Assembly (NCBI GenBank): GCA_043719155.1
Contig: JAYSUJ010000031.1
Span: 1-25,769, forward strand
Direction of reading: 5' to 3'
DNA: 25,769 nt
Origin: a bacterium
GTDB taxonomy: Bacteria; Patescibacteriota; Minisyncoccia; Phycocordibacterales; UBA5272
Part shown: piece after piece, positions 740-25,207 of the stretch
Position numbering within the stretch: the first letter of the stretch is position 1
How the letters are laid out: every line of letters begins with the position of its first letter
The notes under the pieces: generated by a model
The model's input: only the letters and a program-made list of their open reading frames with translations
Databases searched by the model: none
Told to the model about the DNA's origin: nothing
Translations under genes and position numbers: made by a program

Positions 740-768
740 TTGTACATTAACAAAAAAATATTTAGTAT
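740..768 (+). promoter_or_regulatory. promoter-like box TTGTAC-17nt-TAGTAT, near-identical 35-nt copy at 16936-16972
   Basis: TTGTAC(740-745), 17-nt spacer, TAGTAT(763-768); same 35-nt string upstream of the small ORF at 17015; overlaps left inverted-repeat arm of cassette 1. Confidence 0.45.
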
Positions 769-825
769 CACAATTTGTTTGCAACTTGTATGTTTTGTGA
801 ACACAACAAGAAGAAAGGATTTAAC

Positions 826-1062
826 ATGTCTGGCAAACTTTATTTTGGTAAAATCTTCTTTGCTAAAAATTCAAAGGAAGAATATACCGTTGGGTATCTA
901 TTCTGTAAAAACTTGGAGGATGCAAAGATCCAGATAGCAACTGATGCAGCCACTGCATGGATGAATTTAAAAGCCAAACCAGAATTTCAAGATGTTATTT
1001 TTTTGAAACTGGTTTTGGTAGGAAAAGATGGTGATGAGCATCAGATTAATTGGAAACCTTGA
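826..1062 (+). CDS. small hypothetical protein (78 aa) ending ...INWKP; paralog of ORF 2977-3231
   Basis: ATG at 826 preceded by AAAGGA RBS; the 775 start would lie at/before predicted TSS; C-terminal NWKP and TVGY motif shared with ORF 2977-3231. Confidence 0.5.
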   Translation: MSGKLYFGKIFFAKNSKEEYTVGYLFCKNLEDAKIQIATDAATAWMNLKAKPEFQDVIFLKLVLVGKDGDEHQINWKP

Positions 1063-1070
1063 AGTGATTC

Positions 1071-1100
1071 TGGTTTGATAATTGAAAGATTATCAAACCA
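1071..1100 (+). other. perfect 12-bp stem / 6-nt loop hairpin immediately after small ORF
   Basis: TGGTTTGATAAT-tgaaag-ATTATCAAACCA; weak T tract follows. Confidence 0.7.
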
Positions 1101-1206
1101 ATTTTACAAAGCATATAATAATGTGTAAGCAAATTGTGGTACTGAATACTAAATGTTAAAAAACAATTTTGAAAAACTCGAAATAAAATAGAAATATATA
1201 AAATAT

Positions 1207-1743
1207 ATGTCAAAAATAGGAAAACAAGAATTGCTTATACCAGCAGGTGTAACCGTGACTGTAACCGGAGAAAATTTATCTGTCAAAGGTAAAGCTGGTG
1301 AAATTCATAAAACTTTTGATGGAAAGTTGGTGAGTATAAGGGTTGAAGGTGCAAATGTTTTTGTCACTAAAAAAGGCAATGACAAAAAAGCTTCTCAACT
1401 TTGGGGGACAATGGCCGCTCATATTAAAAATATGATCAAGGGTGTTGAAACTCCATATACAAGAAAGCTGATAGTTGAAGGTGTGGGTTATAAGTGGGAG
1501 GTGAAAAGTGACACAGTGCATTTGGCACTTGGTTTCTCTCATCCAGTTTTAATGAAAATACCAGCAGGTTTAAATGTCAAAACAGATAAAGGTGTCATGG
1601 ATATAACAGGTATAGACAAAGAGTTAGTCGGACTTTTTGCTAAAAATATTCGTCAATTGAAAACTCCTGAACCTTATAAAGGAAAAGGAATTCGATACTC
1701 TGATGAAGTTATTAGACGTAAACAAGGTAAGCGTTCAGCATAA
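1207..1743 (+). CDS. rplF: 50S ribosomal protein L6
   Basis: 178 aa, L6-like sequence, canonical position before L18. Confidence 0.9.
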   Translation: MSKIGKQELLIPAGVTVTVTGENLSVKGKAGEIHKTFDGKLVSIRVEGANVFVTKKGNDKKASQLWGTMAAHIKNMIKGVETPYTRKLIVEGVGYKWEVKSDTVHLALGFSHPVLMKIPAGLNVKTDKGVMDITGIDKELVGLFAKNIRQLKTPEPYKGKGIRYSDEVIRRKQGKRSA

Positions 1744-1746
1744 TCT

Positions 1747-2088
1747 ATGAAAGTAACAAAAAAACAAGGACGTTTAAGGCGTCACGCAAGAGTGAGAGCT
1801 AAAATTTCTGGCACCTCAACTGTACCAAGAGTTTCGGTGTATCGTTCAAACGTAAATATCTATGTTCAAGTTATAGACGACACGACAAACAAAACTTTGA
1901 TAGGTAAATCTACAAAAGCTTTGACCGGCACAAAAAGTATAAAAGCTTTAGAGTTAGGAAAAGCAATAGGAGCAGAGCTTAAAAAGTTAGGTGTTGCATC
2001 TGCATTGTTTGACAGAGGTGGATACAAATATCATGGTCGAGTGCAAAACGTAGCCACAGGTTTACGTGAATCTGGATTAAAAATTTAA
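1747..2088 (+). CDS. rplR: 50S ribosomal protein L18
   Basis: 113 aa basic protein, L18-like, between L6 and S5. Confidence 0.88.
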   Translation: MKVTKKQGRLRRHARVRAKISGTSTVPRVSVYRSNVNIYVQVIDDTTNKTLIGKSTKALTGTKSIKALELGKAIGAELKKLGVASALFDRGGYKYHGRVQNVATGLRESGLKI

Positions 2089-2094
2089 AAATAT

Positions 2095-2865
2095 ATGGAA
2101 GAAACAAAAGTAGAAACTACAAATGTAGATGCACCCCAAGCTAGAAGTTTTGCACCTCGTGGCAACTTTAGAGGTGGTGCAGGTGGTCGTGACGGACAAA
2201 GAGGTGGTCGCCCACCAGGTAAAGGCGGACCAAGAGGTGGTGGTCGTCCAGAAAGACAAAAGCCAGAATTCGAGCAAAAAATGATAGACGTACGTCGTGT
2301 AACTCGTGTAGTTTCAGGAGGTCGTCGCTTTTCCTTCTCAGTAGCACTTGTTATTGGGGACAGAAAAGGTCATGTTGGTTTTGGTATAGGAAAATCTGGC
2401 GACACTTCTGCAGCAATTGATAAAGCTTACAAACAAGCAACAAAGAAAATGATAACTTTGCGTCTAAACAAAAAGTTTTCAATTCCTTATGATGTAAATG
2501 CTAAGTTCAACACTTCAAAGCTTACTCTTATGCCAAACAAAGGCCGTGGACTTATTGCAGGTTCATCTGCACGTACAGTTCTAGCTCTTGCTGGCGTGAA
2601 AGACATTACTGCCAAGTATCACTCTGGTTCTAAAAATAAACTTAACAATGCAAAGGTTTGTATGGAAGCTTTAAAGAATTTTTCAATTCCATTTGAAAGA
2701 TCTCACAAGCCAAAAGAAGACCGAGCAGAAGGTGTGCGAAAGTTTGTAGGCGGACGAGATGGTGCTAGAAAATTTGGAAGTCGACCAGGTGGTTTTAGAA
2801 AGCCTTTTGAAAATAGAGATGCTGCTCCTAAAACTGAAAACGCTATAGATAAAATAACTATATAA
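2095..2865 (+). CDS. rpsE: 30S ribosomal protein S5 with RGG-rich N- and C-terminal extensions (256 aa)
   Basis: central region matches S5 (dsRBD-like and S5 C-terminal domain, e.g. GDRKGHVGFG...); ~65 aa Gly/Arg-rich N-term and ~60 aa basic C-term tail. Confidence 0.85.
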   Translation: MEETKVETTNVDAPQARSFAPRGNFRGGAGGRDGQRGGRPPGKGGPRGGGRPERQKPEFEQKMIDVRRVTRVVSGGRRFSFSVALVIGDRKGHVGFGIGKSGDTSAAIDKAYKQATKKMITLRLNKKFSIPYDVNAKFNTSKLTLMPNKGRGLIAGSSARTVLALAGVKDITAKYHSGSKNKLNNAKVCMEALKNFSIPFERSHKPKEDRAEGVRKFVGGRDGARKFGSRPGGFRKPFENRDAAPKTENAIDKITI

Positions 2866-2976
2866 GAAACAATATCTTAAGATAAAAAAATTCTTTTAAA
2901 ATAAAATATCGAGCGTCACAATTTATAAATAAAATATTTGTATAATTAGTAGGACTAGCAAAAGGAAACCTGCATC

Positions 2977-3231
2977 ATGAAAATTGAAGTAGAGAGTTGG
3001 GTATCTATCCAATACATGCTTGAGCGTAAAAATGGCCAAGCTTCTAAGTATGCACGACAACAAACTCATGAACTCCGGATTAAGGAAGGGCAAACTTTTG
3101 AACAAGCTGCTGAGTGCTGTTGGGGTGATATCAAGAAGATAACGGTCGGCTATAAGATAACTTTTGTTAAATCTGAAAGGATAAATATAAAAGTTACCGA
3201 AGAGACTCAGGTACTTAATTGGAAACCATAG
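2977..3231 (+). CDS. small hypothetical protein (84 aa) ending ...LNWKP; paralog of ORF 826-1062
   Basis: AAAGGA RBS upstream; shares C-terminal NWKP and internal TVGY with ORF 826-1062; occupies the slot where rpmD (L30) normally lies but has no L30 similarity. Confidence 0.5.
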   Translation: MKIEVESWVSIQYMLERKNGQASKYARQQTHELRIKEGQTFEQAAECCWGDIKKITVGYKITFVKSERINIKVTEETQVLNWKP

Positions 3232-3240
3232 CTATCCAGG

Positions 3241-3273
3241 CACGAGCAAACTCCATTTTGGAAAATGCTCGTG
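3241..3273 (+). other. stem-loop after small ORF (8-bp stem CACGAGCA/TGCTCGTG with inner TCCA/TGGA)
   Basis: inverted repeat seen directly; no T tract, so not a classical intrinsic terminator. Confidence 0.6.
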
Positions 3274-3363
3274 TCACCTACTAAATATATAAAATTTATT
3301 TATAAATTGTGGCACTTGATAAAATAAAATTTGAAGAATTAAAATAAAAAGAAACAAAAATAT

Positions 3364-3882
3364 ATGGAAATAAATAATATACATAGAAATACACCAAATA
3401 AAAAGGTGCGTTTGCATGGTCGTGGAGGAAAGCGAGGCAAGACTTCTGGTCGTGGTACCAAGGGTCAAAACGCTCGTGCTGGTAGAAAGTTTCGTCCTGA
3501 AATGCGAGACGCTATCAAGAAACTTCCAAAACTAAGAGGGCATACTGTAAATGGTTTTGCCATCTCTTCAACTGGTGTACACAACAACAAAGCTGTTGCA
3601 ATAAACTTGTCACAACTTTCTGTTTTTACAAAAGGAGAAACTGTAAACTTGAAAACTTTAGCTGAGAAAAAAGTCCTTAACATGAAGTTAGGAAAATATC
3701 CTGCAACTAAAATTTTAGGAACAGGGGAAATAAAAGTTGCACTAAATTTCGAAAGAGTTCAAGTTTCAAAAGAAGCTAGAACAAAAATTGAAAAAGCTGG
3801 AGGGACAATAAAAGAAGAAACAAAAGTTTCAACTCTACTTCCTAAAAAAGCTAGACGTGCAGCGAAAGCTAAAACGGCTTAA
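3364..3882 (+). CDS. rplO: 50S ribosomal protein L15
   Basis: 172 aa, Gly/Arg-rich N-term typical of L15, precedes secY. Confidence 0.85.
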   Translation: MEINNIHRNTPNKKVRLHGRGGKRGKTSGRGTKGQNARAGRKFRPEMRDAIKKLPKLRGHTVNGFAISSTGVHNNKAVAINLSQLSVFTKGETVNLKTLAEKKVLNMKLGKYPATKILGTGEIKVALNFERVQVSKEARTKIEKAGGTIKEETKVSTLLPKKARRAAKAKTA

Positions 3883-3904
3883 ATCCAAACTGAAAATTAA
3901 AAAC

Positions 3905-3937
3905 AAAAAACATCTAAAATTTAGATGTTTTTTGTTG
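3905..3937 (+). terminator. intrinsic terminator after rplO
   Basis: AAAAAACATCTAAA...TTTAGATGTTTTTT inverted repeat with T run. Confidence 0.6.
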
Positions 3938-4000
3938 TTTGAAAAATATGTTATAATGCTCCTTAGTTTAAAAAACAAATTAATTTATCTAACTCATTTT

Positions 4001-5257
4001 ATGCAAAAAACCTTAATGGCTGTCATTAAAGAAGAGTCTTTACGAACAAAAGTCCTTATTGTACTTGGGCTTTTAGCTTTAACTCGTTTATTGTCTGCTG
4101 TGCCACTACCAGGAGTAGACACTGAAAAGCTTGCTGGTTTCTTGGCCAACAACCAACTTTTTGAGTATTTGTCCCTCTTCTCCGGTTCAGGCTTTTCGAC
4201 TTTTTCCATCACCCTTTTAGGTCTTGGGCCATATATTACAGCTAGTATCTTGGTGCAAGTTGGGTCTATGGTTTTCCCACAAATTAAAAAACTTATGCAC
4301 GAAGAGGGGGAATTGGGACGAAAAAAGATTACACAATATACTCGTATTTTCACAGTCCCATTTGCTTTCCTTCAAGGTTTCGCCTTGATGAAAATTTTAG
4401 CAGCCCAAGGAATATTAACAACAACAGGAAACTATGATATTTTCCTAAACCTTTTGGTGATGACAGCCGCAACTTTGGTGTTGTTGTTTATTGGTGAAAA
4501 GATTACCGAGTTTGGTATAGGTAACGGTACTTCTCTCATTATCTTTTCTGGTATCGCTGCAGGTATGCCGGGGGCTATATCTCAGTTTTATGCAACTTTC
4601 GATACTGCTCAAATACCACTTTACCTAGTTCTTTTGGCCATGAGCTTACTTATAATTTCACTTGTGGTATTTATAAACGAAGCTGAAAGAAGGGTGGAGA
4701 TAACATATGCTCGTGCTTATGGACAACAGCAAGGTAGTTTAGACACTCATTTGCCACTTAAAATAAACCAAGCGGGTATGATCCCAATTATTTTTGCCCT
4801 AGCACTATTCACAATGCCACAGTTTGCAGCTCAATATTTTGTAAGTTCTGGTGTGCCAATGTTGGCAACGGTGGGAACTTATGTAAATGCTTTTTTTGCA
4901 AATCAAATCCTGTATATGATTGTTTACTTTGTCTTGGTATTTGCTTTTACATTCTTTTACACATCGGTGGTTGTAGAGCCAGAAGAAATGTCAAAAAATT
5001 TACACAAACGTGGGGCTTTTATCCCAGGTATACGCCCAGGTGAAAATACTGCAGAGTATTTGGGTAATGTGATAACTCGTATAACTTTTGTAGGAGCAAC
5101 TTTCTTGGCATTTGTTGCCGTGCTACCGATAGGCATGCAAGCCATAACTGGAATACAGGCTTTAGCTGTAGGTGGAACAAGTGTACTTATTGCTGTGTCT
5201 ACAGCTCTTGAGACATACAAAAAAGTAGAGGCCCAAGCTACTTTAACAGAATACTAA
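4001..5257 (+). CDS. secY: preprotein translocase subunit SecY
   Basis: multi-TM protein with SecY-like sequence; ATG at 4001 chosen because the 3857 start overlaps rplO and the terminator. Confidence 0.85.
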   Translation: MQKTLMAVIKEESLRTKVLIVLGLLALTRLLSAVPLPGVDTEKLAGFLANNQLFEYLSLFSGSGFSTFSITLLGLGPYITASILVQVGSMVFPQIKKLMHEEGELGRKKITQYTRIFTVPFAFLQGFALMKILAAQGILTTTGNYDIFLNLLVMTAATLVLLFIGEKITEFGIGNGTSLIIFSGIAAGMPGAISQFYATFDTAQIPLYLVLLAMSLLIISLVVFINEAERRVEITYARAYGQQQGSLDTHLPLKINQAGMIPIIFALALFTMPQFAAQYFVSSGVPMLATVGTYVNAFFANQILYMIVYFVLVFAFTFFYTSVVVEPEEMSKNLHKRGAFIPGIRPGENTAEYLGNVITRITFVGATFLAFVAVLPIGMQAITGIQALAVGGTSVLIAVSTALETYKKVEAQATLTEY

Positions 5258-5276
5258 TTTTAAATTTTAATATCAC

Positions 5277-5310
5277 AAAAACACATAATTTATTTATGTG
5301 TTTTTGTTTT
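5277..5310 (+). terminator. intrinsic terminator after secY
   Basis: AAAAACACATAA / TTATGTGTTTTT stem followed by T run. Confidence 0.6.
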
Positions 5311-5351
5311 TCACTTTTTAGACTAAAAATGTTACAATCACTATAAATAAT

Positions 5352-5705
5352 ATGAATATAAAAATTTTAGATAAAAATAAAAAAATTAAAGTTTCTGACT
5401 TGAAAAGTTTTGCAAATGAGTGGTACGAAATATTATTAAAAGGAACTGTAGATGTTGAGCTTGCTAGGGTGGCTCTGGGTGGAGAGTGGCACTTGGATAG
5501 TTGTGAGATTTTAACAAAAACTGGCTCAAATAAAGATAATGTATGGGGTTTCAACATTGTCTTTGATACGATAGATAAAAAACTAGAATATCATTCTTTG
5601 GTAAATATCAAGCCAAACAAAAACCATAAAAAAATGGAAATAACAAATGAAGATTTGATTCTAGAAATCAACAAAGTTTTAAGCGAGTATATCGACTTTG
5701 AGTAA
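5352..5705 (+). CDS. hypothetical protein (117 aa)
   Basis: ORF inserted between secY and adk; no recognisable family. Confidence 0.5.
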   Translation: MNIKILDKNKKIKVSDLKSFANEWYEILLKGTVDVELARVALGGEWHLDSCEILTKTGSNKDNVWGFNIVFDTIDKKLEYHSLVNIKPNKNHKKMEITNEDLILEINKVLSEYIDFE

Positions 5706-5715
5706 TTTTAAAAGC

Positions 5716-5985
5716 ATGACAGAAAAACAGAAATACAATTTTTATTTAGCCAATCTTGGACCCGAACTAGGTAGGTTATTAAAATTTAAAAATATTGATG
5801 AACTACAATTTTTAGGTGCAAGACAAAGAGTGGAAAATATATTAGAAAAAATAGTTTTAACAAGAAGTGAGACAAATTTTCTAGAAATAGAAAAAATACT
5901 AGACTTGATACTCTGGAGCGATTCTGTATCCCAAGACGACTTGGATTTATACTTTTACCCAATTTCTTTAAATATGTTAAAATGA
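5716..5985 (+). CDS. hypothetical protein (~90 aa)
   Basis: ATG at 5716 (track start 5698 is TTG); stop overlaps adk start in an ATGA overlap, suggesting translational coupling. Confidence 0.45.
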   Translation: MTEKQKYNFYLANLGPELGRLLKFKNIDELQFLGARQRVENILEKIVLTRSETNFLEIEKILDLILWSDSVSQDDLDLYFYPISLNMLK

Positions 5986-6623
5986 AATTAAATATGCAAG
6001 AAAATATAACAACAGAAAATAAGAGTAAGATAATCATTTTGGTCGGTCGCTCTGGAAGTGGAAAAGGGACACAGGGTAAATTTATTAAAAGTTTTTTGGA
6101 GAAAAATTTCCCAGAGAATGAAATGCATTACCTTTCAACCGGAGAAGAAATGAGGAGGATAATGAAACAAAGCTCTTATACTGCGCAACTATCAAGAAAT
6201 GCAGTAAACGAGGGTAAGCTGCAGCCGATGTTTTTCTCTGTTTATGTTTGGGCAAAATATCTTATGGAACATGTACATGGTAACGATAATGTAATATTTG
6301 ATGGAGTGCCAAGACGTCGTGAGGAGGCCAAAATTTTGCACTCAACTGTAAAGTTTTATGATTGGGAAAAGCCAGTGGTTATAAATTTGGAAGTAAGTGA
6401 AGAAGAGTGTATAAGAAGAATGATAGAAAGAAAAAGAGATGATGATAATGTAGAAAATTTTAAAAAGAAAATGGACTGGTATAAAATAGAGGTTGAGCCG
6501 ATGTTGCAATGGTATGAAGAAAGTAATCAATACTCTTATACAAAAATTCATGGTGAAAATGCACCAGAAGAAATTTCCAAACACATCGAGCGCTTTCTAA
6601 CTTCGCATTTTAATTTAAAATAA
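5982..6623 (+). CDS. adk: adenylate kinase-like P-loop NMP kinase (divergent)
   Basis: GRSGSGKGTQ P-loop resembling adenylate kinase GxPGxGKGTQ; DGVPRR motif; position after secY before map as in the spc operon. Confidence 0.7.
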   Translation: MKLNMQENITTENKSKIIILVGRSGSGKGTQGKFIKSFLEKNFPENEMHYLSTGEEMRRIMKQSSYTAQLSRNAVNEGKLQPMFFSVYVWAKYLMEHVHGNDNVIFDGVPRRREEAKILHSTVKFYDWEKPVVINLEVSEEECIRRMIERKRDDDNVENFKKKMDWYKIEVEPMLQWYEESNQYSYTKIHGENAPEEISKHIERFLTSHFNLK

Positions 6624-6642
6624 TTCTAATTAAAATTTAATT

Positions 6643-7431
6643 ATGTCCAAGCATGTACCGTACACAGATAAAGAAATAAGTATTTTAAAAGAAGGTGGCA
6701 AAAGACTTGCTGCTATTTTAGAGATACTTGGTAAAAAATGTGTTGCAGGCACAATTGCAAAAGAGTTGGACGGCCTGGCTGAAAAATTAATTTTAGAAAA
6801 TGAAGATATACCTGTTTTTAAAAATTATAGGCCAAAAGGCGCTGCTTATCCGTTTCCCGCCACACTTTGCGTATCTATAAATGATGTGGTGGCACACGGT
6901 ATACCTAAGGGAGAGATTTTAAAGGAAGGTGATGTGGTAAGTTTGGATCTTGGGTTGCGGCATGGTGGATTGGTGGTAGATTCGGCTATAAGTATTTTGG
7001 TGGGCGGCGGCTACGCCGCCGCCCAATTTCCACTTGAGCAAAAACTTTTAGAAGTTACTAAAAAAGCATTGGAAATCGGTATTGAAAAGTGTGTAGTTGG
7101 TAACAGGGTAAATGATGTAGGGATAGCTATAGAAAAATATGTTAGTAGCGAAGGTTTTACTGTGGTTGATATTTTATGTGGTCATGCTGTAGGTCGAGAG
7201 ATACACAGTGAACCCATTATTCCACATGCTGACTTTGGGCTAGGTGGTGAAAAGTTTAAAGAGGGGATGGTCGTAGCTATTGAGCCACATATTTCTATGG
7301 GCAATGGACAGATTTCACTTTCAAATAAAGACGCTTGGAGCTATGTTTCCGACGATGGACACAAGACGGCTCAGTTTGAACATACAATCCACATTACTTC
7401 TGGTCTCCCGCAAGTTTTGACAGAAAAGTAA
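6643..7431 (+). CDS. map: methionine aminopeptidase type I
   Basis: pita-bread fold motifs (DxD...HGxxxE...EPHIS...E) seen in sequence. Confidence 0.9.
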   Translation: MSKHVPYTDKEISILKEGGKRLAAILEILGKKCVAGTIAKELDGLAEKLILENEDIPVFKNYRPKGAAYPFPATLCVSINDVVAHGIPKGEILKEGDVVSLDLGLRHGGLVVDSAISILVGGGYAAAQFPLEQKLLEVTKKALEIGIEKCVVGNRVNDVGIAIEKYVSSEGFTVVDILCGHAVGREIHSEPIIPHADFGLGGEKFKEGMVVAIEPHISMGNGQISLSNKDAWSYVSDDGHKTAQFEHTIHITSGLPQVLTEK

Positions 7432-7453
7432 TAATCTTGTATAATATTACACA

Positions 7454-7780
7454 ATGAAAAACACCAATTGTCCATACGTTAAAACGAATCCTGATAATAA
7501 TATTTTGTCTAATTTTTCTTTGATTACAAGAGCAGAGGCTCAACCTATTCAAAATATCCCAGTTGAAAGAGTGGCTCAAAGTCTAAGTTCACAACTTAGC
7601 ACTCCCTTTTACTTGCTAGTAGCTAGCTTCTTTCTGTTTACATTCTTGATGGCAGCTGTCTACATTTATCATTGGATAAATTTTAATTTAAACGACCCTA
7701 TAATCAAACATTTCATCCCAGTGTTTTTTGTTGGATTGGTAATGTTATTGATACCTTTAATTTTTAATTTGATAAACTAA
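7454..7780 (+). CDS. small membrane protein (2 predicted TM helices)
   Basis: two hydrophobic segments in the C-terminal half; immediately upstream of a bPH_2 protein, an arrangement reminiscent of YdbS/YdbT. Confidence 0.5.
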   Translation: MKNTNCPYVKTNPDNNILSNFSLITRAEAQPIQNIPVERVAQSLSSQLSTPFYLLVASFFLFTFLMAAVYIYHWINFNLNDPIIKHFIPVFFVGLVMLLIPLIFNLIN

Positions 7781-7784
7781 AAGT

Positions 7785-8570
7785 ATGTTAAATTTGCACC
7801 CTGACGAAAAAGTTATAATCTATATACGACGACACTGGATATTTTTATTTATACAAACCAAGTTGATTTTTCTACTTTTCATAACCCCAACACTCTTAGT
7901 TTGGGCTCTTCAATATTTTGGTTACGTACCAGAGTTTAATATTTTTGGAGTTTCCTTCTACTCGCTGACAGATGTATTTATCTACATGTGGGCAATTTTT
8001 TGTTGGCTGCTTTTGGCTGAAAAGTTTACAGATTATGCATTAGACTTTTGGGTTTTGACAAATAAAAGAATTATTGAAAGTGAACTACTAAAACTTTTTG
8101 ATCGTCGACTTTCTACTCTAGAGTTACAAGATATTGAAGATGTAACTGTAAGGGTAAAAGGTGTTGTGCAGACGGCGATAGGTTATGGAACATTGGAGGT
8201 GCAAACTGCGGGTAGCGAAAGAGAATTTTTGGCAGAAAATATTGCTGACCCGGCTAAAGTTCAGGAACTAATTTTTGATGCCAAACTAAAACAAGCACAA
8301 GAAGAGAAGGATATCGAAAAGCAAGAGTTTGAACAAATTGCCAATAGGGTAACAACAGAAAGAATTGCTGTAGACCATAATGCAGAAAACCATATACCAC
8401 TAGACCAAAAGCAAAAGGAAGATGTAAAGAGTATGGCTGAAAATGCTTTTGATTGGGCTCATGTAAATCAATCTCAGTTCAAAGACACAAGAAACGTAGA
8501 GGAGTATATGGAAACTGTAGAAGACAAATACAAAAAAAATACTGAAGCTGCACTTCGAACAGGGCTGTAG
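7785..8570 (+). CDS. membrane protein with bacterial PH domain (bPH_2/DUF304, YdbT-like) and acidic C-terminal tail
   Basis: N-terminal 2-TM hairpin followed by VLTNKRII...GYGTLEVQTAG pattern typical of bPH_2. Confidence 0.55.
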   Translation: MLNLHPDEKVIIYIRRHWIFLFIQTKLIFLLFITPTLLVWALQYFGYVPEFNIFGVSFYSLTDVFIYMWAIFCWLLLAEKFTDYALDFWVLTNKRIIESELLKLFDRRLSTLELQDIEDVTVRVKGVVQTAIGYGTLEVQTAGSEREFLAENIADPAKVQELIFDAKLKQAQEEKDIEKQEFEQIANRVTTERIAVDHNAENHIPLDQKQKEDVKSMAENAFDWAHVNQSQFKDTRNVEEYMETVEDKYKKNTEAALRTGL

Positions 8571-8634
8571 TTTTTCTACTGGGGACAAACACTTGTGTTT
8601 GGGCTAAATAGTTCATATACTTATTTTATATTAT

Positions 8635-11403: not shown

Positions 11404-11452
11404 CCTGTAAAGTTTTTTATCTTTCTGGAGTATACTGTCCATATAATTTGTT

Positions 11453-14245
11453 ATGTTAAATTTAAGTGAACTCAGAAAAGATTTTAAATCCAAAGAAGAA
11501 GAAATAGAGTATCTGCATGCTCTGATTTTGGAAAAAGAGCAAGAAAAAAATACTGAAAAAAAAGATGCAGGATCTGGGATTTTAATCAGAGAAGACAAAC
11601 AAGACAAAGCACATCAGATAGGTGAGATACTTCATAAGTATAAGGGTGAAAAAACAGAAGACATTTTAAATAAAAACTTTGTCTTAAATGAGGAGCATGT
11701 GACAACCCTGTCTTTAGGGCTGCAGCCAGAGGACCATGACGATAAGCTGCAAAAATTGATAGACATTTTTTTAACGGAGGGTGTAAAAAACTCTTTTTTG
11801 GTATTAGAGAAAATTGGTGATGCTCATTTAGAAGATGATTTCCATAGATTTCTAGTACAATATCTTTTGAAAACCCAAACTGAACATGCAAAAAAAAGAC
11901 TAAGCAGCTACAGGGAAACAGCCAAAGCTTTGGGGACATCGCTTTTTCAGGTTATTTTACCAACTGAAAAAGAAAATCAGCAAACGCCTGGAAACCAGCC
12001 ACCAGACCCAAAGAACATCATTGCTTTAATGGAGCGTTTTTACATAGGTATGATGTCCATTTCCGATCCGACCAACATGGAGAAAAATAAAAATTATTTT
12101 ACTTTGGAAATTGCTAAGCCACAAAACTCTAACCAAATAAAGTTTTTTGTGTCTGTTCCAAACGACTTCAAAGACCTGTTTCAAAAACAGGTTTTAGCCC
12201 TCTATCCTTCGGCTAAAATAGAGTTGCAACCAGACGATTACAATGTTTTTTCAGCAGAAGGTTTTTCAGTAGGAGCCTATGCTGAAAGTGGGAAGATCCC
12301 AGCTTTGCCTATCAAAACTTATAAAGATTTTGCAGGTGACTCTATTTCGGTTGTGTTGTCGGTCCTGTCGCAACTTCAAGACAATGACGAGGGGGCTGCG
12401 ATACAAATAGTGATACGTCCTGCTGGAGAAAAATTTATAAAAGAATATGGAAAGCTGTTGGACAAAATGCGTAGAGGAAAAACCTTGAAAAATGTTTTGG
12501 CTGACAGGACTGTAATGGGTTCGATAGGGTATGAAATCAAGCAAATGTTTAAAGGTGAGACACAGTTGGAAAAAGAAAAAACTAACAAATCCCATGAAGA
12601 TGAAGATGCGATAAAACTTCTGTCAGAAAAATTAAACTCAACAATTTTTAATACAAATATCAGACTCGTTGCTTCTTCAAAATCTCCAATTCGCAGTTCG
12701 CAAATTTTGCATGAAGTTTCTTCTTCTTTTAGGCAATATACGGAAAGCAAGGGCAATAGTATTATCTTTAAAGACATAAAAGCCAGAAGCTCGGCCCAGT
12801 TTTTCAAACATTACTCCTATCGCTATTTTGACGATTCAGAAAGCTTCCCCCTCAACGCTGCAGAGCTCGCCACTATTTATCACTTTCCAAAAGGTGTATC
12901 AGACCGAGATTTTTCAGAGCTCAATCAATATGCTGCAGCCCAAGCTCCGGCCCCTCTAGACTTACCGAAAACAGGTATTTTCCTTGGAAAAAATAATTAT
13001 CGCCACCTTTCTACGCCGATACATTTTGAGCCAGACTCACGGGTTCGACATATGTATGTTATAGGACAAACGGGTACTGGTAAGTCTTATTTCTTGATGA
13101 ATAATATCATTCAGGATATTAAAAATGGTGAAGGACTTTGTTTTATAGATCCTCATGGGGCAGACTTGCAAACCATTATGTCACTCATTCCAAAAGAAAG
13201 AATTGATGACGTGATTTATTTTGACCCAGGAGATCTGTCACGGCCTATGGGACTAAACATGCTCGAGTATGACATTACTCATCCAGAGCAAAAAACTTTA
13301 ATTGTAAATGAGCTGCTATTAATTTTCAACAAACTTTTTGATATGAAAACAGCCGGAGGTCCAGCCTTTGAACAGTACTTTCGTAACTCAGCACTTTTGG
13401 TAATGGAGCACCCTGAAAGTGGTTGTACTATGCTTGAAATTTCTCGTGTACTTGCCAACTCAGAGTTTAGGCATATGAAACTGCAGCATTGTAAAAATCC
13501 GATGGTTAAACAATTTTTCGAAACAGCAGAGGCGACAAGTGGTGAACAAGGTTTTGAAAACTATGTTCCTTACGTTACAAATAAATTTGATAACTTTTTA
13601 AGTAATGAATTTATGCGACCTATTATAACCCAAGAAAAATCGGCTTTTGATTTTAAAGACATCATGGCCAATAAAAAAATCTTACTTGTCAATTTATCTA
13701 AAGGAAAGTTGGGCGAGCTTGGTTCGCAACTTATAGGTTTGATAATTGTAGGGAAGATTTTGGTTTCAGCTTTTGCACGTGACCCTCATGAAAACCCGCC
13801 GCCTTTTTATTTGTATTTAGACGAGTTTCAAAATGTTGCAACTGATTCTATAAAATCAATCTTGTCTGAAGCACGTAAGTACAAACTTGGTTTAACTTTG
13901 GCCCATCAATACATAGAGCAAATTCCCAAAGATATAAAAGATGCTATTTTTGGAAACGTGGGCAGTAAAGCAATTTTTAGAATAAACATGGAAGATGCAA
14001 AGTTTATCGAAACCAGTTTTTCACCAACCTTTACAGCTAAAGATATTATAGGTCAAGAAAGAGGGAATTGTTATTTGAGTTTGTTGGCCAACAACAAGCC
14101 ACAAAAGCCTTTTAATTTACAAGTACCGCGTTTACCAGACGGTAACGAAGAGATAAAACAGGTAATTATTGAACTCTCAGCTTTGAAATACGGAACCCCG
14201 AGGGAGGAAGTAGAGGAAATGATAATGAAAAAATTTAATATTTAA
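11453..14245 (+). CDS. FtsK-HerA superfamily P-loop ATPase, VirB4/VirD4(TraG)-like conjugation or type IV secretion ATPase with ~500-aa N-terminal domain
   Basis: Walker A GQTGTGKS; Walker B hhhhDEFQ (FYLYLDEFQN) followed by ...ARKYKLGLTLAHQ... (Arg finger/Q motif characteristic of TraG/VirB4/HerA); no N-terminal TM segment. Confidence 0.65.
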   Translation: MLNLSELRKDFKSKEEEIEYLHALILEKEQEKNTEKKDAGSGILIREDKQDKAHQIGEILHKYKGEKTEDILNKNFVLNEEHVTTLSLGLQPEDHDDKLQKLIDIFLTEGVKNSFLVLEKIGDAHLEDDFHRFLVQYLLKTQTEHAKKRLSSYRETAKALGTSLFQVILPTEKENQQTPGNQPPDPKNIIALMERFYIGMMSISDPTNMEKNKNYFTLEIAKPQNSNQIKFFVSVPNDFKDLFQKQVLALYPSAKIELQPDDYNVFSAEGFSVGAYAESGKIPALPIKTYKDFAGDSISVVLSVLSQLQDNDEGAAIQIVIRPAGEKFIKEYGKLLDKMRRGKTLKNVLADRTVMGSIGYEIKQMFKGETQLEKEKTNKSHEDEDAIKLLSEKLNSTIFNTNIRLVASSKSPIRSSQILHEVSSSFRQYTESKGNSIIFKDIKARSSAQFFKHYSYRYFDDSESFPLNAAELATIYHFPKGVSDRDFSELNQYAAAQAPAPLDLPKTGIFLGKNNYRHLSTPIHFEPDSRVRHMYVIGQTGTGKSYFLMNNIIQDIKNGEGLCFIDPHGADLQTIMSLIPKERIDDVIYFDPGDLSRPMGLNMLEYDITHPEQKTLIVNELLLIFNKLFDMKTAGGPAFEQYFRNSALLVMEHPESGCTMLEISRVLANSEFRHMKLQHCKNPMVKQFFETAEATSGEQGFENYVPYVTNKFDNFLSNEFMRPIITQEKSAFDFKDIMANKKILLVNLSKGKLGELGSQLIGLIIVGKILVSAFARDPHENPPPFYLYLDEFQNVATDSIKSILSEARKYKLGLTLAHQYIEQIPKDIKDAIFGNVGSKAIFRINMEDAKFIETSFSPTFTAKDIIGQERGNCYLSLLANNKPQKPFNLQVPRLPDGNEEIKQVIIELSALKYGTPREEVEEMIMKKFNI

Positions 14246-14248
14246 AAA

Positions 14249-15370
14249 TTATTTAATTTCACTAAATTTAGGCTTAGAGACGGTGCTTGTACTCTTTTCT
14301 GGAGTGTAGGTTAAAATTGGGTATTCCAGCTCTTTAAGTTCAGGTATTTTTTCAAAATAATATTTGAGCTTGTACTCAATAATCTCTAGGGGGAGGTTTA
14401 AGATTTGCATGAGAGGAAAGTGCACAGCACCGTAAAAAGATAAAACTTTTCTGTCTTTAAATTTATCTGGATTTTTCCTTATCTCTAGTAATAAATTTCT
14501 AGCCACAATAAATTCTCTAAAGTTGGCAAAAGAAAGTTCAACTAAGGTTTTTCCAAAAGTGGTTTGCTGCAGTTTTTCTGGTACTATATCGGCGTAACGT
14601 AAACGTCCCTCCAGGTTGTCTCTCGGCAAAAGCATTAAAAGTGAGATTGTGCTGGACAGAGCCGTGAAAGTGTCGACTTCGACTGCTGTGTCGACTGCTT
14701 TATCTCCACCCATAGCCCGGATAGTTTCTGCTGTCACAGCTGAAATAGTTACTGGGATAGCTGTTGCAGAACTTATTGCGCTAGTCGTTTCAAATAAAGT
14801 CGCAAACCTTTCATCCCAATATCTATTTCCTTTTTTTCCCATACTAAAATTATCTGGGTCGCTGCAAATGACTTTTTTATTGTGTAAAAAAGCTAAAAGC
14901 TTTAAACAGTTAAAGTATTCTCTTGCATCATGTGGTCCTTGTTTTGCAAGCCAGGTCATTATTTCCTTTTTTCCTTGCGGCAGTTTAAGAGAAAAGAGTT
15001 TTAAATATTCCGGGTCCAAGTCGGAAGAATTTTCATTGGAAAAATATTCAATTAGGACAATGTCCGAGTTTTTAATGGAATTTGATATCTCCTCAAAGCT
15101 ATGAGAAGCTTGGGGAGGATAGTGTTCTACCCCGATAAATTTTAAAGTGGTGTTTGGAGAATTAGGGATTTGCAAAGAGCTATACTCTTTGAAAAATTTA
15201 GGTGACTCTTTGTCTTCTGGTGACTCTGAACCTTGTCTATCCTTTATATTTAGCAAAGTTTTACCTGCAACCAGAGCAGCTGCTGCTCGAGCTGCCCACT
15301 TTATACCGTTCTCGATAATTCTTCGCCTGCTTGGTTGGGACTTTTCGTTTTTTAGTTTTTCTGGAGACAT
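14249..15370 (-). CDS. hypothetical protein, possible TraB/GumN (Tiki-like) family
   Basis: N-terminal FIGVEH...VLIEY and C-terminal FYGAVHFP resemble the GxxH...E...GAxH signature of the TraB/Tiki superfamily; Ala-rich hydrophobic N-terminus after an RRR motif. Confidence 0.4.
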   Translation of the reverse strand: MSPEKLKNEKSQPSRRRIIENGIKWAARAAAALVAGKTLLNIKDRQGSESPEDKESPKFFKEYSSLQIPNSPNTTLKFIGVEHYPPQASHSFEEISNSIKNSDIVLIEYFSNENSSDLDPEYLKLFSLKLPQGKKEIMTWLAKQGPHDAREYFNCLKLLAFLHNKKVICSDPDNFSMGKKGNRYWDERFATLFETTSAISSATAIPVTISAVTAETIRAMGGDKAVDTAVEVDTFTALSSTISLLMLLPRDNLEGRLRYADIVPEKLQQTTFGKTLVELSFANFREFIVARNLLLEIRKNPDKFKDRKVLSFYGAVHFPLMQILNLPLEIIEYKLKYYFEKIPELKELEYPILTYTPEKSTSTVSKPKFSEIK

Positions 15371-15379
15371 GTGTTTGTA

Positions 15380-15406
15380 TTGTCAAAGTCTACCTTACTT
15401 TGACAA
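15380..15406. promoter_or_regulatory. 10-bp perfect palindrome TTGTCAAAGT-7nt-ACTTTGACAA in divergent intergenic region; right half provides TTGACA followed by TATACT(15421-15426)
   Basis: seen directly; candidate operator plus promoter for the SIMPL gene. Confidence 0.45.
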
Positions 15407-15449
15407 AAAAATAAATACGGTATACTGTATTTAGTAATTAAATAAATAT

Positions 15450-16274
15450 ATGAACAATTCAAACAACATAACGATTTTACAAAAAGCTGGAGTATTTGCC
15501 TTGGCAACACTTGGTATTTTAGCCTTGGCTGCAACTTGGTTTATGTACAAAACTTTTTCACATCAAGACACTCGTACTTTTACGGTACAAGGTAAAGGTG
15601 AGGTAGAGGTAAAGGCAACAAAGGCAACTGTGTCAGCTGAAATATTTGCAGAAAGTAAAGACACAAAAGACGGTGGGGACGCGGCTCTAAAACTTACAGA
15701 GACGTCTACTAAAATTTTTGCTGAACTTGAAAAAGCTGGTGTAAAAAAAGAAGATATAAAAACTCAAAATGTTTCCACCAATCCAAAATATGACTATTGT
15801 TATAATTATGTTAACAATAGATACGCCTTACCAGAATATTGCAAGAAAGATCCTAACGACCAGAAAGTAATAGGCTACACTTCAACTCAAAGTATCACTG
15901 TAAAGATAACCGACAATAAATCATTGGTAGAAAAAGTACTGGGACTTTTACCACAACTAGGTGCTAGAAATACTAACGGTCCCGCTTGGGAAGTGGACAA
16001 TAAAAAAGCTGTACAAGAGGCAAGAGAAAAAGCTGTAGCGGAGGCCAAAGAAAAAGCCACGAGTATAGCTAAAAGCTTGGGTATGAGCCTCGGGGAAGTG
16101 CAATACTATGCTGAAAACCAAGGTGGTGGAGGTGGTCCAATGCCATTCATGATGAAGGGTTTAACTTCGGCCAGAGCCGAAATGGCCCCAGCTCTTATGG
16201 ATATATCTGTGCCAGTTTCTGAGGGAACAGATAAGGTGACTGTAAATGTAGACATTACTTACGAGTTGAGATAG
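15450..16274 (+). CDS. SIMPL domain protein (DUF541, BP26/OMP28-like periplasmic protein)
   Basis: N-terminal TM anchor then TVQGKGEV...PD.A pattern and overall SIMPL-like organisation; Gly-rich segment near the C-terminus. Confidence 0.65.
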   Translation: MNNSNNITILQKAGVFALATLGILALAATWFMYKTFSHQDTRTFTVQGKGEVEVKATKATVSAEIFAESKDTKDGGDAALKLTETSTKIFAELEKAGVKKEDIKTQNVSTNPKYDYCYNYVNNRYALPEYCKKDPNDQKVIGYTSTQSITVKITDNKSLVEKVLGLLPQLGARNTNGPAWEVDNKKAVQEAREKAVAEAKEKATSIAKSLGMSLGEVQYYAENQGGGGGPMPFMMKGLTSARAEMAPALMDISVPVSEGTDKVTVNVDITYELR

Positions 16275-16434
16275 TTCTAAATTCGTGTTATAATACATCT
16301 TGTAAACCAAAGAAAGGGTAGTGTGAAATAAATTTAGAGATAAAAATATTTTACTTAATGTCTCCCTGACGGTATCTAAAGAATATTTATATACACTTTG
16401 TGTTTATTTGTCCGATTAAAATTAAAAATTAAAC

Positions 16435-16920
16435 ATGCCAATTACAAAAGCAAAAAAAGGTGAAATCCTAAAACAATTGAACACTATTGTAGACTCTTCA
16501 AAGTCTATAGTATTTCTTTCTTTGAAAGGGATAACCGCCAATGATACTGTTGTGATGCGTAAGAAGTTAACTTCTGAAAAAGTAGGTTTAAAAGTTGCTA
16601 AAAAAACTTTATTCAAAAAAGTTGTTGCTGATAAAAACATCAGTGGAACTATGCCTGAATTTGGTCAAGAAACAGCTTTTGCTTATGGAGAAGATTTGTT
16701 GGCCCCAGCTCGTGAAATGTTGAGTTTCACCAAAATGCATAAGGGGTTAATAAGTATAGTGGGTGGTATATTTGACGGAGCCTACAAGTCAAAAGAAGAA
16801 ATGATGCAAATAGCAACTATTCCTTCTAGAGAAGTGTTGATCTCTCAAATTGCTTACTTGCTAAAATCTCCTATCCAGAGTTTAGCTATTGCTGTGTCAG
16901 AGGTTTCTAAAACAAAATAA
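16435..16920 (+). CDS. rplJ: 50S ribosomal protein L10
   Basis: 161 aa L10-like sequence; partner rplL lies downstream. Confidence 0.85.
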   Translation: MPITKAKKGEILKQLNTIVDSSKSIVFLSLKGITANDTVVMRKKLTSEKVGLKVAKKTLFKKVVADKNISGTMPEFGQETAFAYGEDLLAPAREMLSFTKMHKGLISIVGGIFDGAYKSKEEMMQIATIPSREVLISQIAYLLKSPIQSLAIAVSEVSKTK

Positions 16921-16935
16921 TTTTTTTAAAATTAT

Positions 16936-16964
16936 TTGCACATTAACAAAAAAATATTGAGTAT
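16936..16964 (+). promoter_or_regulatory. promoter-like box TTGCAC-17nt-GAGTAT (copy of 740-768)
   Basis: 35-nt near-identity with 740-776. Confidence 0.45.
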
Positions 16965-17014
16965 CACGTTTTACAAAAAATTAGTTGAGATAGCTTGTTA
17001 ACAGGAGGAAGAAG

Positions 17015-17275
17015 ATGGTAAGTGAAAACGAAAAGAAGCCAGACTTTCTAGTTGTTCTCCGTTCAAAAAAAACAGGAGAACATCTTGTGGGTGAATTTTA
17101 TAAACTTCCCCCAGGTGAAATTGGCTGCGAAGAGCCTGTACTATGGCAATTGCTAGCATTCCTGAAAGGCTTCTTGGAGGAGAGAAATAAAAAGATGCTG
17201 ACGCACCCTGAGGGTGTTGGAGATCTAGAGCTCCTGGGTTTGTACAGCAAATTCGACGATCTTGAAAACTATTGA
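17015..17275 (+). CDS. small hypothetical protein (86 aa), GC-richer than neighbours
   Basis: strong AGGAGG RBS 8 nt upstream; inserted in the normally tight rplJ-rplL junction; no similarity to the other two cassette ORFs. Confidence 0.5.
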   Translation: MVSENEKKPDFLVVLRSKKTGEHLVGEFYKLPPGEIGCEEPVLWQLLAFLKGFLEERNKKMLTHPEGVGDLELLGLYSKFDDLENY

Positions 17276-17281
17276 CAAGTA

Positions 17282-17316
17282 GCTACACGCATAGTTTCTG
17301 AAACTTTGCGTGTAGC
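17282..17316 (+). other. 10-bp perfect stem-loop (GCTACACGCA / TGCGTGTAGC) after small ORF, T-rich tract downstream
   Basis: seen directly. Confidence 0.65.
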
Positions 17317-17378
17317 ATCTATCTTAATTTGTTTTTTGTAAAACGTGGTACTTGATATTAAATTAAAATAAAATTAAT

Positions 17379-24254: not shown

Positions 24255-24494
24255 GTTGTCCCTTTCTGGAACAAAGTATTACATCGGACTCAAGGTCCGA
24301 CGCCGGCATTATACAATATATTTAAATAATCGTAAATATTGACTAAACATAATAAAAGTGTTTTAAGTTAATTACTTTTTCAAATTATTTTTAAATAAAT
24401 TTCTTTTATTTGATTAAATTTGTTTAAAAAAGTATCACATTTTTATGGTTTTTTATTTTCTTGTGAGGGAATAGTGGAATGGATGTGGGTTTGC

Positions 24495-24523
24495 TTGACT
24501 TTAGCTTAAACTTCGACTATAAT
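24495..24523 (+). promoter_or_regulatory. consensus sigma70 promoter TTGACT-17nt-TATAAT, likely rRNA promoter
   Basis: TTGACT(24495-24500), 17-nt spacer, TATAAT(24518-24523); ~680 nt upstream of the 23S start with no intervening CDS. Confidence 0.6.
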
Positions 24524-25105: not shown

Positions 25106-25207
25106 AAATTCAATAAAATATATAATTTTTTAGTTAATGAGAAAAGATTAGCAATAATATTTTCGGGGTTAATTAAAACAAAATATAGCTTTACACTTCC
25201 TGATAGG

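Follow-up and report, generated by a model that had tools for sequence, protein, structure and literature searches.

The contig analyzed here (JAYSUJ010000031.1, from a member of the Patescibacteria) was taken whole as the window, a stretch of 25,769 nt with a GC content of ~37%. It carries the ribosomal protein (r-protein) genes S14-S8-L6-L18-S5-L15 followed by SecY, DUF5674, Adk and Map, and further encodes large proteins with peptidoglycan-binding domains, a TraG-like protein, a SIMPL protein, L10-L12 and two thioredoxin-like proteins; the 5' end of a 23S rRNA starts at 25202. Members of the 90% identity cluster of its S14 protein carry the names Paceibacterota, Patescibacteria, Elulimicrobiales or Vogelbacteria, which places the organism in the candidate phyla radiation, in a Paceibacteria-like lineage. 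Three of the roughly seven r-protein junctions in this 25.8-kb contig are occupied by units of 460-500 nt, hereafter cassettes 1 to 3, all lying on the plus strand. According to Pfam coordinates, cassette 1 is the entire 489-nt spacer (718-1206) between S8 (316-717) and L6 (1207-1743), cassette 2 the entire 498-nt spacer (2866-3363) between S5 (2095-2865) and L15 (3364-3882), and cassette 3 the entire 458-nt spacer (16921-17378) between L10 (16435-16920) and L12 (17379-17741). The original prediction, drawn from the letters of the window, had placed three inverted-repeat-bounded small-gene units at these same junctions, where both the Pfam gene calls and the inverted repeats locate them.

The three units share one anatomy. 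From the upstream stop codon to the next start, each comprises an A-rich boundary string, a 5' arm, a cargo open reading frame (ORF) led by a Shine-Dalgarno (SD) motif, a GC-rich hairpin without U-tract, a 3' arm, and an AT-rich run (AAATAT or TTAAT) that ends the insert directly before the downstream ATG. The core arms lie at 759-783 and 1124-1148 in cassette 1 (25 bp, including four G·U pairs), at 2907-2931 and 3297-3321 in cassette 2 (24 of 25 positions paired, with one C·A mismatch), and at 16955-16979 and 17333-17357 in cassette 3 (25 of 25). The enclosed ORFs span 826-1062 (78 aa ending in INWKP, preceded by GAAAGGA), 2977-3231 (84 aa ending in LNWKP, preceded by AAAGGAAA) and 17015-17275 (86 aa, preceded by AGGAGG). 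They are followed by hairpins that were read from the sequence and are present in the predicted folds, at 1072-1099 (an 11-bp stem without U-tract, found in the minimum free energy (MFE) fold and not listed as terminator-like), 3239-3275 and 17282-17316. By our reading, the conserved cores of the arms are AGTATCAC / GTGGTACT.

No inverted repeats in the window are longer than the arms of cassettes 3 and 2 (16953-16993/17319-17359, 41 nt, 83% complementary, and 2907-2943/3285-3321, 37 nt, 81%), and arms were found where predicted in all three units. The pairing first proposed, 14-25 bp, is real and proved too short: each window unit forms 57 long-range pairs, which begin just past the upstream stop codon and reach almost as far as the post-ORF hairpin. 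The near-continuous duplex measures 25 bp in cassette 1, 7+17 bp around one mismatch in cassette 2 and 29 bp in cassette 3, and overall the closing duplex reaches at least 25 bp, with 40-57 pairs in all. Compared with dinucleotide shuffles, the folds have z scores of -9.7, -10.7 and -8.1 for cassettes 1, 2 and 3, respectively. The arms stay paired when 350 nt of coding flank is added on each side: in this 1.1-kb context, 24-25 of the 25 core pairs are kept in the MFE fold with a pairing probability of ~1.0, as for the arms of cassette 1.

Covariation was assessed over the 25-bp core of the seven complete cassettes from the window and its relatives. Standard pairs are formed in 172 of 175 core cells. 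Double-sided changes affect 13 of the 25 pairs, and 10 of 25 in the three window cassettes alone, which confirms the compensatory changes initially noticed between copies. Sliding the partner by 1-3 columns lowers pairing to 34-49%, and none of 500 column shuffles reached any of the observed covariation measures. Pair 10, at which a T on the left had been seen to face a G on the right in every window copy, is U·G in 7/7 cassettes, while pair 5 is U·G in one cassette and G·U in two others. The non-Watson-Crick core cells consist of 21 G·U, one A·C and two others; in the full long-range stems of the window, 18 G·U were counted against 2 A·C (the latter by eye). Furthermore, the sense strand folds with an MFE 10-48 kcal/mol below that of the antisense strand in 13/13 folded segments from the window and its relatives. 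The covariation signal is large, although a sample of seven cassettes from three or four genomes is small for such statistics. These data show that the stem is under selection and that this selection is specific to the sense strand, in keeping with the long-range RNA-type stem of the original prediction. A purely double-stranded DNA terminal repeat is excluded as the selected object because of the G·U excess and the sense-strand bias. The pattern places the action of the stem in single-stranded nucleic acid, most likely RNA.

Contigs of close relatives came from an exact look-up with the S14 protein and with members of the 90% clusters of S8 and L12; their S8 proteins are 83-92% identical to that of the window. 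A blastn alignment with one of them, L135, is broken at window positions 717|1198 and between 2865 and 3417, breakpoints that in this alignment coincide exactly with the spacer edges. Matching junctions exist in both filled and empty states. The S14-S8 junction is empty in the window, L135 and L139 (3-4 nt) and filled by 494 nt in L143. The S8-L6 junction, which holds 489 nt in the window and 338 nt in L143, measures 8 nt in L135, L137 and L147. Likewise, S5-L15 is filled in the window (498 nt) and L143 (450 nt), and reads TAA tttt ATG, a 4-nt spacer, in L135, L139 and L144. The L10-L12 junction amounts to 25 nt in L146, as opposed to 458 nt in the window and 1,167 nt in L145. In 20 more distant Paceibacteria loci, all junctions are compact and the arms are absent. 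The expectation that these junctions are normally a few nucleotides long thus holds among relatives, and the proposed search for empty sites at S8-L6, S5-L15 and L10-L12 yielded a clean presence/absence polymorphism. Because close relatives differ so cleanly at matching junctions, the comparison shows the cassettes to be true insertions relative to these relatives. No consistent direct repeat indicative of a target-site duplication was found when filled and empty junctions were compared.

The S5-L15 cassette is distributed patchily: the window and L143 have it, whereas it is missing from L139 and L144, both of which are slightly nearer to the window in most shared proteins. Its distribution therefore requires either precise loss or repeated gain. 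Although cassette 2 occupies the slot of L30, its ORF has no Pfam match at E ≤ 5 besides noise, hence none to L30; since the S5-L15 spacer of relatives is 4 nt long, L30 is missing from the whole clade.

The same arms and boundary string were recovered in L143 (three cassettes), L145 (three tandem units) and L138 (two partial copies). Across the family, units span 338-498 nt with loops of 250-390 nt, and those of the relatives fold as closed domains with z scores of -8 to -16. L143 carries cassette A at S14-S8, B at S8-L6 and C at S5-L15, with arms AGTATCACAATTT / AAATTGTGGTACT or ...CACATTTT / AAAATGTG...; all three contain an SD-led ORF and a post-ORF hairpin; B and C are preceded by the boundary string, A by a different left flank. 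The ORF of A encodes 86 aa and that of C 80 aa ending in TDWKP, and B encodes a 48-aa membrane peptide. At L10-L12 of L145, each of the three tandem units opens with an identical 29-nt sequence, TATTTGCACATTAACAAAAAAATATTGA, and holds a different cargo: U1 and U2 enclose GC-rich non-coding RNA between arms of quite different, unrelated sequence with the same architecture, and U3 combines canonical arms with a 31-aa membrane peptide. In L138, a right arm lies upstream of S14 and a cassette start follows S8. The two ORF-less tandem units of L145 (2853-3502) each comprise 200-340 nt of GC-rich RNA with its own closing stem (z ~ -8). They have no Rfam match, an 'ARRPOF' hit in L145 (15 bits) being rejected as noise, and resemble neither each other nor the structured 23S leader of the window described below. 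Rfam holds no family for the window cassettes either.

The search of other genomes for the arm motifs, suggested with the original prediction, was unproductive. The pattern TCACRWTTT-N(352-382)-AAAWYGTGGYACT gave 48 single hits in unrelated taxa over the 185,579 species genomes of GTDB, the sole hit in the candidate phyla radiation (CPR) falling inside coding sequence, and 5 hits in IMG/VR. We estimate these numbers to be close to those expected by chance, with no family members among the hits; the family was found instead in contigs of close relatives. There, r-protein junctions or leaders host 7/7 independent sites as well as the two partial copies, all in the sense orientation.

Cargo turnover among these relatives is extensive. 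The S8-L6 cargo is a 78-aa alpha/beta protein in the window and, in L143, the 48-aa membrane peptide; where the window has an 86-aa protein at L10-L12, L145 has non-coding RNAs and a 31-aa peptide. The cargo at a given junction is not conserved among close relatives while the ends are, and it is interchangeable between orphan alpha/beta proteins, small membrane peptides and GC-rich non-coding RNAs. That units turn over from one close relative to the next, that cargo is exchanged while the ends are conserved, and that units form tandem arrays shows the family to be mobile or to have been so recently.

As originally predicted, small ORFs of 78, 84 and 86 aa, each with its own ribosome-binding site, are present, and they exceed what shuffling would produce. 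An ORF as long as the one observed arose in only 4, 1 and 2 of 2000 dinucleotide shuffles of the loops of cassettes 1, 2 and 3, respectively. The count for cassette 1 refers to a 90-aa form starting at ATG 790, the longest sense ATG ORF of that loop and the choice of the gene callers (P0001). On the antisense strand of the loops there is no ORF of comparable length. A GGA or AGGAGG SD motif precedes all three cassette ORFs, whereas the neighboring r-protein genes lack such motifs and have plain AT-rich leaders. The SD regions have a probability of being unpaired of 0.46-0.67 versus unit means of 0.31-0.40; the modeled fold thus shows the cargo SD as exposed, presenting the cargo for translation rather than locking it. 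Since the ORFs are significant, each has an SD motif and the SD region is accessible, the cargo is probably meant to be translated. Its stop codons are TGA, TAG and TGA, as opposed to TAA in 16 of 23 host genes.

The cassette proteins are orphans. No homologue of ORF1, ORF2 or ORF3 was found among 5.8 billion clustered proteins, and ORF3 retrieved only itself from 1.84 billion cluster representatives. Pfam, PHROGs and PADLOC returned nothing or noise for the three ORFs, and PDB sequences nothing for ORF3. A single-sequence AlphaFold2 model of ORF1 reached a predicted local distance difference test (pLDDT) score of 77 with a beta-beta-alpha-beta-beta order; for ORF2, one of five models attained 74 and was not used further. 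ORF1-3 are hydrophilic, and only the peptides of L143-B and L145-U3 are predicted to be membrane-located, both single-pass with basic tails. The paralogy initially proposed for ORF1 and ORF2 retains marginal C-terminal support (Smith-Waterman shuffle p ~0.02 over the last 40 residues, ending in NWKP), but BLASTP detects no similarity and their TVGY motifs are not collinear. In both, as in the L143-C protein, a helix ends in W and the C-terminus reads (N/D)WKP (shuffle p 0.005-0.02). ORF2 and the L143-C ORF, both from S5-L15, are weakly similar (p = 0.005) and may be diverged orthologues. No relationship of ORF3 or the L143-A ORF to ORF1, ORF2 or L143-C could be demonstrated, and the cassette interiors are unrelated to one another.

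The boundary string TTGTACATTAACAAAAAAATATTTAGTATCAC occurs twice in the window, at 740-771 in cassette 1 and 16936-16967 in cassette 3, three times in L145 and once or twice in L143. The near-identity first noted between cassettes 1 and 3 is real, with 30 of 32 positions identical and no such match expected by chance. Its interpretation as a promoter does not hold: by our own count the hexamers match sigma-70 at 3/6 and 3-4/6 positions, and the string is absent from the list of a consensus scan. We rejected the sigma-70 reading on TTGYAC matching at 3/6 and on an invariant 17-nt 'spacer' next to a varying -10 (TAGTAT, GAGTAT, GAATAA, GAATTC), the reverse of promoter conservation. By our reading of the folds, the string pairs in part with the right flank, with an A-rich internal loop in between, as TTAACA / TGTTAA in cassette 1 and L143-B, and as GTTCTTTTACA / TGTAAAGAAC in L143-C. 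That the string is identical before each tandem unit of L145 suggests a sequence-specific role, in processing or recombination.

Outward promoter-like motifs were seen at right ends (TTGATA-18-TAAAAT at 3316, TTGATA-17-TAATAT at 17352 and TGTTATAAT in L143-C). Neither these nor promoter-like sites on the minus strand are commoner than in shuffles. Canonical promoters do exist nearby, namely TTGACT-17-TATAAT at 24495-24523 upstream of the 23S rRNA and TGTTATAAT upstream of S14 in relatives. As to termination, no U-tract follows the post-ORF hairpins and they were not scored as terminators; they do not look like intrinsic terminators and read-through seems plausible, which fits the need for read-through to L6-L18-S5, L15-SecY and L12.

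In the interpretation that we favor, with middling confidence, the cassettes are inserted, co-transcribed units whose closing duplex serves as an RNase III-type processing or insulation module. Accessory cassettes lodged in r-protein junctions would ride on the transcription of highly expressed operons, as their position suggests, and each would fold into a self-contained RNA domain. Its closing duplex of at least 25 bp with the invariant U·G could be the substrate of an RNase III-type double-strand-specific endonuclease; at the very least, the duplex may loop the cargo out as an insulator. The mRNA of the cargo would then be clipped out, or stabilized with base-paired ends, and stay translatable, with read-through to the essential downstream gene going on. 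Expression of the downstream gene may be raised further by the outward promoter-like motifs at the right end.

Several points weigh against this interpretation. It is the length of the duplex alone that brings in RNase III. G·T wobbles are tolerated in folded single-stranded DNA, hence the strand signal is no proof of RNA, and some of the G·U excess could stem from a sense-strand C-to-T bias linked to transcription. When the left arm was scrambled in silico, the probability that the downstream start site is unpaired dropped from 0.65 to 0.47 for cassette 3 and from 0.84 to 0.80 for cassette 2, and was unchanged for cassette 1; in these models, simple insulation of the next start is not established. 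Lastly, all relatives were fetched via r-protein genes, so that the restriction to r-protein operons is biased by sampling, and the source genome is represented by a single 25.8-kb contig.

A bolder version, which we regard as doubtful, would see the r-protein junctions as an integron-like platform for the capture and expression of cassettes. Orphan proteins, membrane peptides and structured RNAs would be swapped or stacked between the boundary string and the sense-strand hairpin, the U·G pair would mark the site of a dedicated nuclease or recombinase, and the hairpin would excise the cargo RNA from the pre-mRNA.

The stem might instead work in single-stranded DNA, an explanation that we consider rather unlikely. 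Like IS200/IS605 or REPIN elements, the cassettes would be transposable units with hairpin ends that depend for their movement on a Y1 (HUH) tyrosine transposase acting in trans, with seamless insertion and excision on the lagging-strand template and RNA pairing as a by-product. REPINs, which derive from repetitive extragenic palindromes (REPs), are known hairpin elements maintained by compensatory change (PMC3116915, PMC3337134). Clean empty sites without target-site duplication agree with such a mechanism, and so do the precise loss or repeated gain called for by the patchiness of S5-L15 (window and L143 versus L139 and L144) and the tolerance of G·T wobbles in folded DNA. Moreover, the L143 operon encodes a protein resembling the REP-associated tyrosine transposases (RAYTs), with 27.5 bits to Pfam Y1_Tnp (cut-off 23) and E = 7e-12 to NCBIfam REP_Tyr_transpos. 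That protein stays under the NCBIfam cut-off (45.5 versus 80) and its gene is flanked on both sides not by cassette arms but by a different GC-rich palindrome, CCCCGACCCCCGGGGGTCGGGG; because of this other palindrome, a role as the cassette mobilizer is not supported. A hairpin of the partial cassette upstream of S14 in L138 (the post-ORF hairpin at 40-60, AGACCCCCGGGGGTCT) resembles that palindrome. Pfam detects no Y1 transposase among the window proteins. IS200/IS605 ends and REPs are short local hairpins, unlike a 25-57-bp duplex around a loop of 250-390 nt. All copies being sense-oriented in transcribed operons with exposed SD motifs also speaks against action in DNA.

The remaining explanations are less likely than both the co-transcribed processing module and the Y1 mechanism. 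The original prediction had named a mobile element as the alternative to its RNA stem, two ideas that are not mutually exclusive; clean presence/absence insertions partly uphold this alternative, but the cassettes have neither a target-site duplication nor the anatomy of classical miniature inverted-repeat transposable elements (MITEs). As double-stranded DNA MITEs or terminal-inverted-repeat transposons with a passenger gene, their arms would be transposase-binding sites. Inverted repeats with conserved ends do bound the units (25-41 nt), several copies occur per genome, presence is polymorphic, and Correia elements exemplify repeats that double as promoters and RNase III targets (PMC2649163). 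For duplex DNA sites, the 21:1 ratio of G·U over A·C and the swap between U·G and G·U at one pair are unexpected, as are inner arms that differ wholly in sequence between copies while keeping complementarity, the unrelated arms of L145 U1 and U2 within the same architecture, and the single orientation of all copies. Furthermore, the arm-pattern scan of the 185,579 species genomes and IMG/VR stayed at chance level, and the cassettes have significant coding ORFs and unrelated interiors, unlike non-coding, near-identical copies. We hold this origin to be quite improbable.

We attach a similarly low probability to the cargo being ordinary lineage-specific host genes, for example ribosome-associated ones, that are co-regulated and not mobile, the stems serving as RNase III or autoregulatory sites. 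Strict residence in r-protein operons, strong SD motifs, the foldable alpha/beta model of ORF1 and the possible orthology of ORF2 and L143-C at one junction are compatible with host genes. Less easily accommodated are a cargo that differs wholly at one junction between close relatives, sister lineages without units, the lack of homologues in 5.8 billion proteins and stop codons (TGA, TAG, TGA) departing from the TAA of 16 of 23 host genes. Least probable of all, type I toxin-antitoxin-like addiction modules, in which a 5'-3' interaction locks the toxin mRNA as in hok/sok or AapA1/IsoA1, would account for the 5'-3' pairing of a ~400-nt small-protein mRNA (a hallmark of such systems, PMC5416894) and for the single-pass membrane peptides with basic tails of L143-B (48 aa) and L145-U3 (31 aa), but the three window proteins are hydrophilic alpha/beta, the SD is exposed rather than sequestered, promoter-like sites on the minus strand do not exceed those in shuffles and some units have no ORF.

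Other inserts are found in the same operons. L139, L144 and L136 have non-coding inserts of 118-138 nt at S8-L6, and considering S8-L6 and L6-L18 together such inserts measure 114-138 nt (L136 1812-1948, L144 10403-10540 and 11078-11191, L139 7071-7188). The one common to L136 and L144 forms a single long hairpin (fold z = -5) whose outer stem, AAATATTG(A/G)...(T/C)CAATATTT, is similar to the outermost cassette pairs; it could be a miniature cassette derivative. A search of Joint Genome Institute (JGI) metagenomes with L6 yielded only relatives at 52% identity or less, in which S8-L6 spacers are normally short (~15 nt by our estimate) and the longer ones often hairpin-folded. In distant bacteria (loci L055-L134), 14 S8-L6 spacers of at least 80 nt were folded after exact stop-codon mapping, a rougher estimate being 17 of ~75. 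Several of them, in L055 (about 170 nt), L078, L071, L092 and L077, form a single closed hairpin or rod, which hints that self-pairing is a general property of the inserts tolerated at S8-L6.

The L15-SecY junction is a further insertion hot spot of the clade. In L143 (12606-14170) it contains a TerC gene, an 18-bp perfect hairpin before TerC and the gene of the RAYT-like Y1 transposase (227 aa); in L139 and L144 it contains an S49 peptidase gene and other genes. In the window, this junction contains a perfect AT-rich palindrome of 16 bp (3902-3936). The listed SecY start, GTG 3857, is probably too early: relatives align only from residue 47-49, and a start near 4000 is likely, which would leave a spacer of ~118 nt. 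In the same operon, S5 has an N-terminal extension of ~55 residues (2095-2260), its Pfam domain beginning at residue 59. The DNA of this extension has a GC content of 0.52 versus 0.37 for the contig, and its sequence is not conserved (tblastn alignments to relatives start at residue 55), yet the S5 proteins of close relatives are also long.

A fourth hairpin-closed element occupies the 23S rRNA leader of the window (24820-25105). Its arms, 24820-24843 and 25082-25105 (24 nt, 92% complementary; AGCACTACATTTTG...), are only loosely cassette-like (15/21 positions by our own count), and surround a GC-rich RNA of 238 nt that apparently has GCAA, UUCG and GAAA tetraloops (z = -8.4). The element has no Rfam match, no convincing ORF and no U·G at the key pair, and comparison with the non-coding cargos revealed nothing beyond a 20-nt AT-rich match. 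A lone exact left-arm motif, AGTATCACATTTT, lies at 24431-24443 upstream of the rRNA promoter, without a right arm to match it in the window, and could be a remnant or have arisen by chance (an estimated ~0.04 expected). Around the same promoter, an AT-rich inverted repeat of 31 nt (24377-24407/25058-25088, 87% complementary) spans 650 nt and overlaps the 3' arm of the leader element by 7 nt, which could reflect alternative pairing or chance. The promoter itself lies ~680 nt upstream of the 5' end of the 23S rRNA, which therefore has a long structured leader, with no 16S gene directly upstream on the contig.

Few bacterial gene arrays are as compact and conserved as the r-protein operons, which makes them an unexpected location for cassettes and such insertion an unusual, dynamic route by which essential operons acquire accessory genes. 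Our observations suggest a tolerance rule for inserts in essential polycistrons, namely sealing by a hairpin, an SD-led ORF, the absence of a terminator and an AT-rich run before the next start. RNA processing has hardly been studied in CPR bacteria, and a stem with 13 covarying pairs and an invariant U·G would give such work a precisely defined target. The cargo represents orphan small proteins and RNAs with fast turnover in very small genomes. Should the hairpin or the boundary string be the means of mobility, the cassettes would constitute a new kind of gene-cassette system.

We found no literature on such elements in CPR bacteria or in ribosomal operons, but partial parallels exist elsewhere. 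The Correia repeat enclosed elements (CREE) of Neisseria are roughly 100-150 bp long, with a TA target duplication and an IHF site. They are non-coding and reach high copy numbers, whereas the cassettes measure 340-500 nt, hold an ORF or structured RNA in the loop, show no duplication and so far occur only in r-protein operons of one Patescibacteria clade. Both CREE and the enterobacterial repetitive intergenic consensus (ERIC) elements are, like the cassettes, bounded by inverted repeats, intergenic within operons and co-transcribed as long RNA hairpins, which RNase III binds or cuts (PMC2649163); for the cassettes, the hairpin is a predicted fold and co-transcription is deduced from operon position. 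The ends of CREE can create promoters, and the elements vary in presence between strains (PMC2649163). The stems that frame rRNA in its operon and the RNase III sites of phage T7 similarly pair the flanks of a unit over at least 20 bp. From these, a double-strand-specific nuclease releases the unit from a polycistronic precursor. The cassettes, known here from predicted folds, differ from them in enclosing a small mRNA or RNA and in being insertions with variable cargo.

REPINs, at ~100 nt, are cargo-free and made of two REPs that also flank the RAYT gene, whereas the RAYT-like gene of L143 is flanked by another palindrome. They resemble the cassettes as non-autonomous intergenic hairpins kept by compensatory change, the L143 operon containing a RAYT-like gene as well (PMC3116915). 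Integron cassettes share with the present family an interchangeable, mostly orphan cargo, a single orientation, expression from an upstream promoter, an imperfect hairpin formed by one strand, and tandem arrays with a repeated boundary element (the three units of L145 with their 29-nt string). The attC hairpin lies beside the ORF, while cassette arms lie around it, and the location is in essential operons rather than at attI. No attC cores (RYYYAAC / GTTRRRY) could be read in the cassettes, whose cores are those given above, and no window protein contains an integrase domain.

Phage morons are defined by a promoter and a terminator of their own. Like them, the cassettes are independent small-ORF units between operon genes that are absent from relatives, but their promoter match is poor and their hairpin lacks a U-tract, and morons have no closing stem. 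In hok/sok and AapA1/IsoA1, a 5'-3' interaction also closes a ~400-nt small-protein mRNA (PMC5416894), with the SD hidden and a hydrophobic toxin encoded, as opposed to the exposed SD and the mostly hydrophilic or non-coding cargo of the cassettes. None of the compared systems encloses variable coding or RNA cargo in a hairpin or is known in r-protein junctions. By analogy, the closest in function would be the Correia/ERIC-type hairpin repeats (PMC2649163) and the rRNA processing stems, and the closest in evolutionary behavior the REPINs (PMC3116915) and integron cassettes. We place the cassettes among the hairpin-forming intergenic elements, as a variant of these, though the chance that they represent a new cassette system is real.

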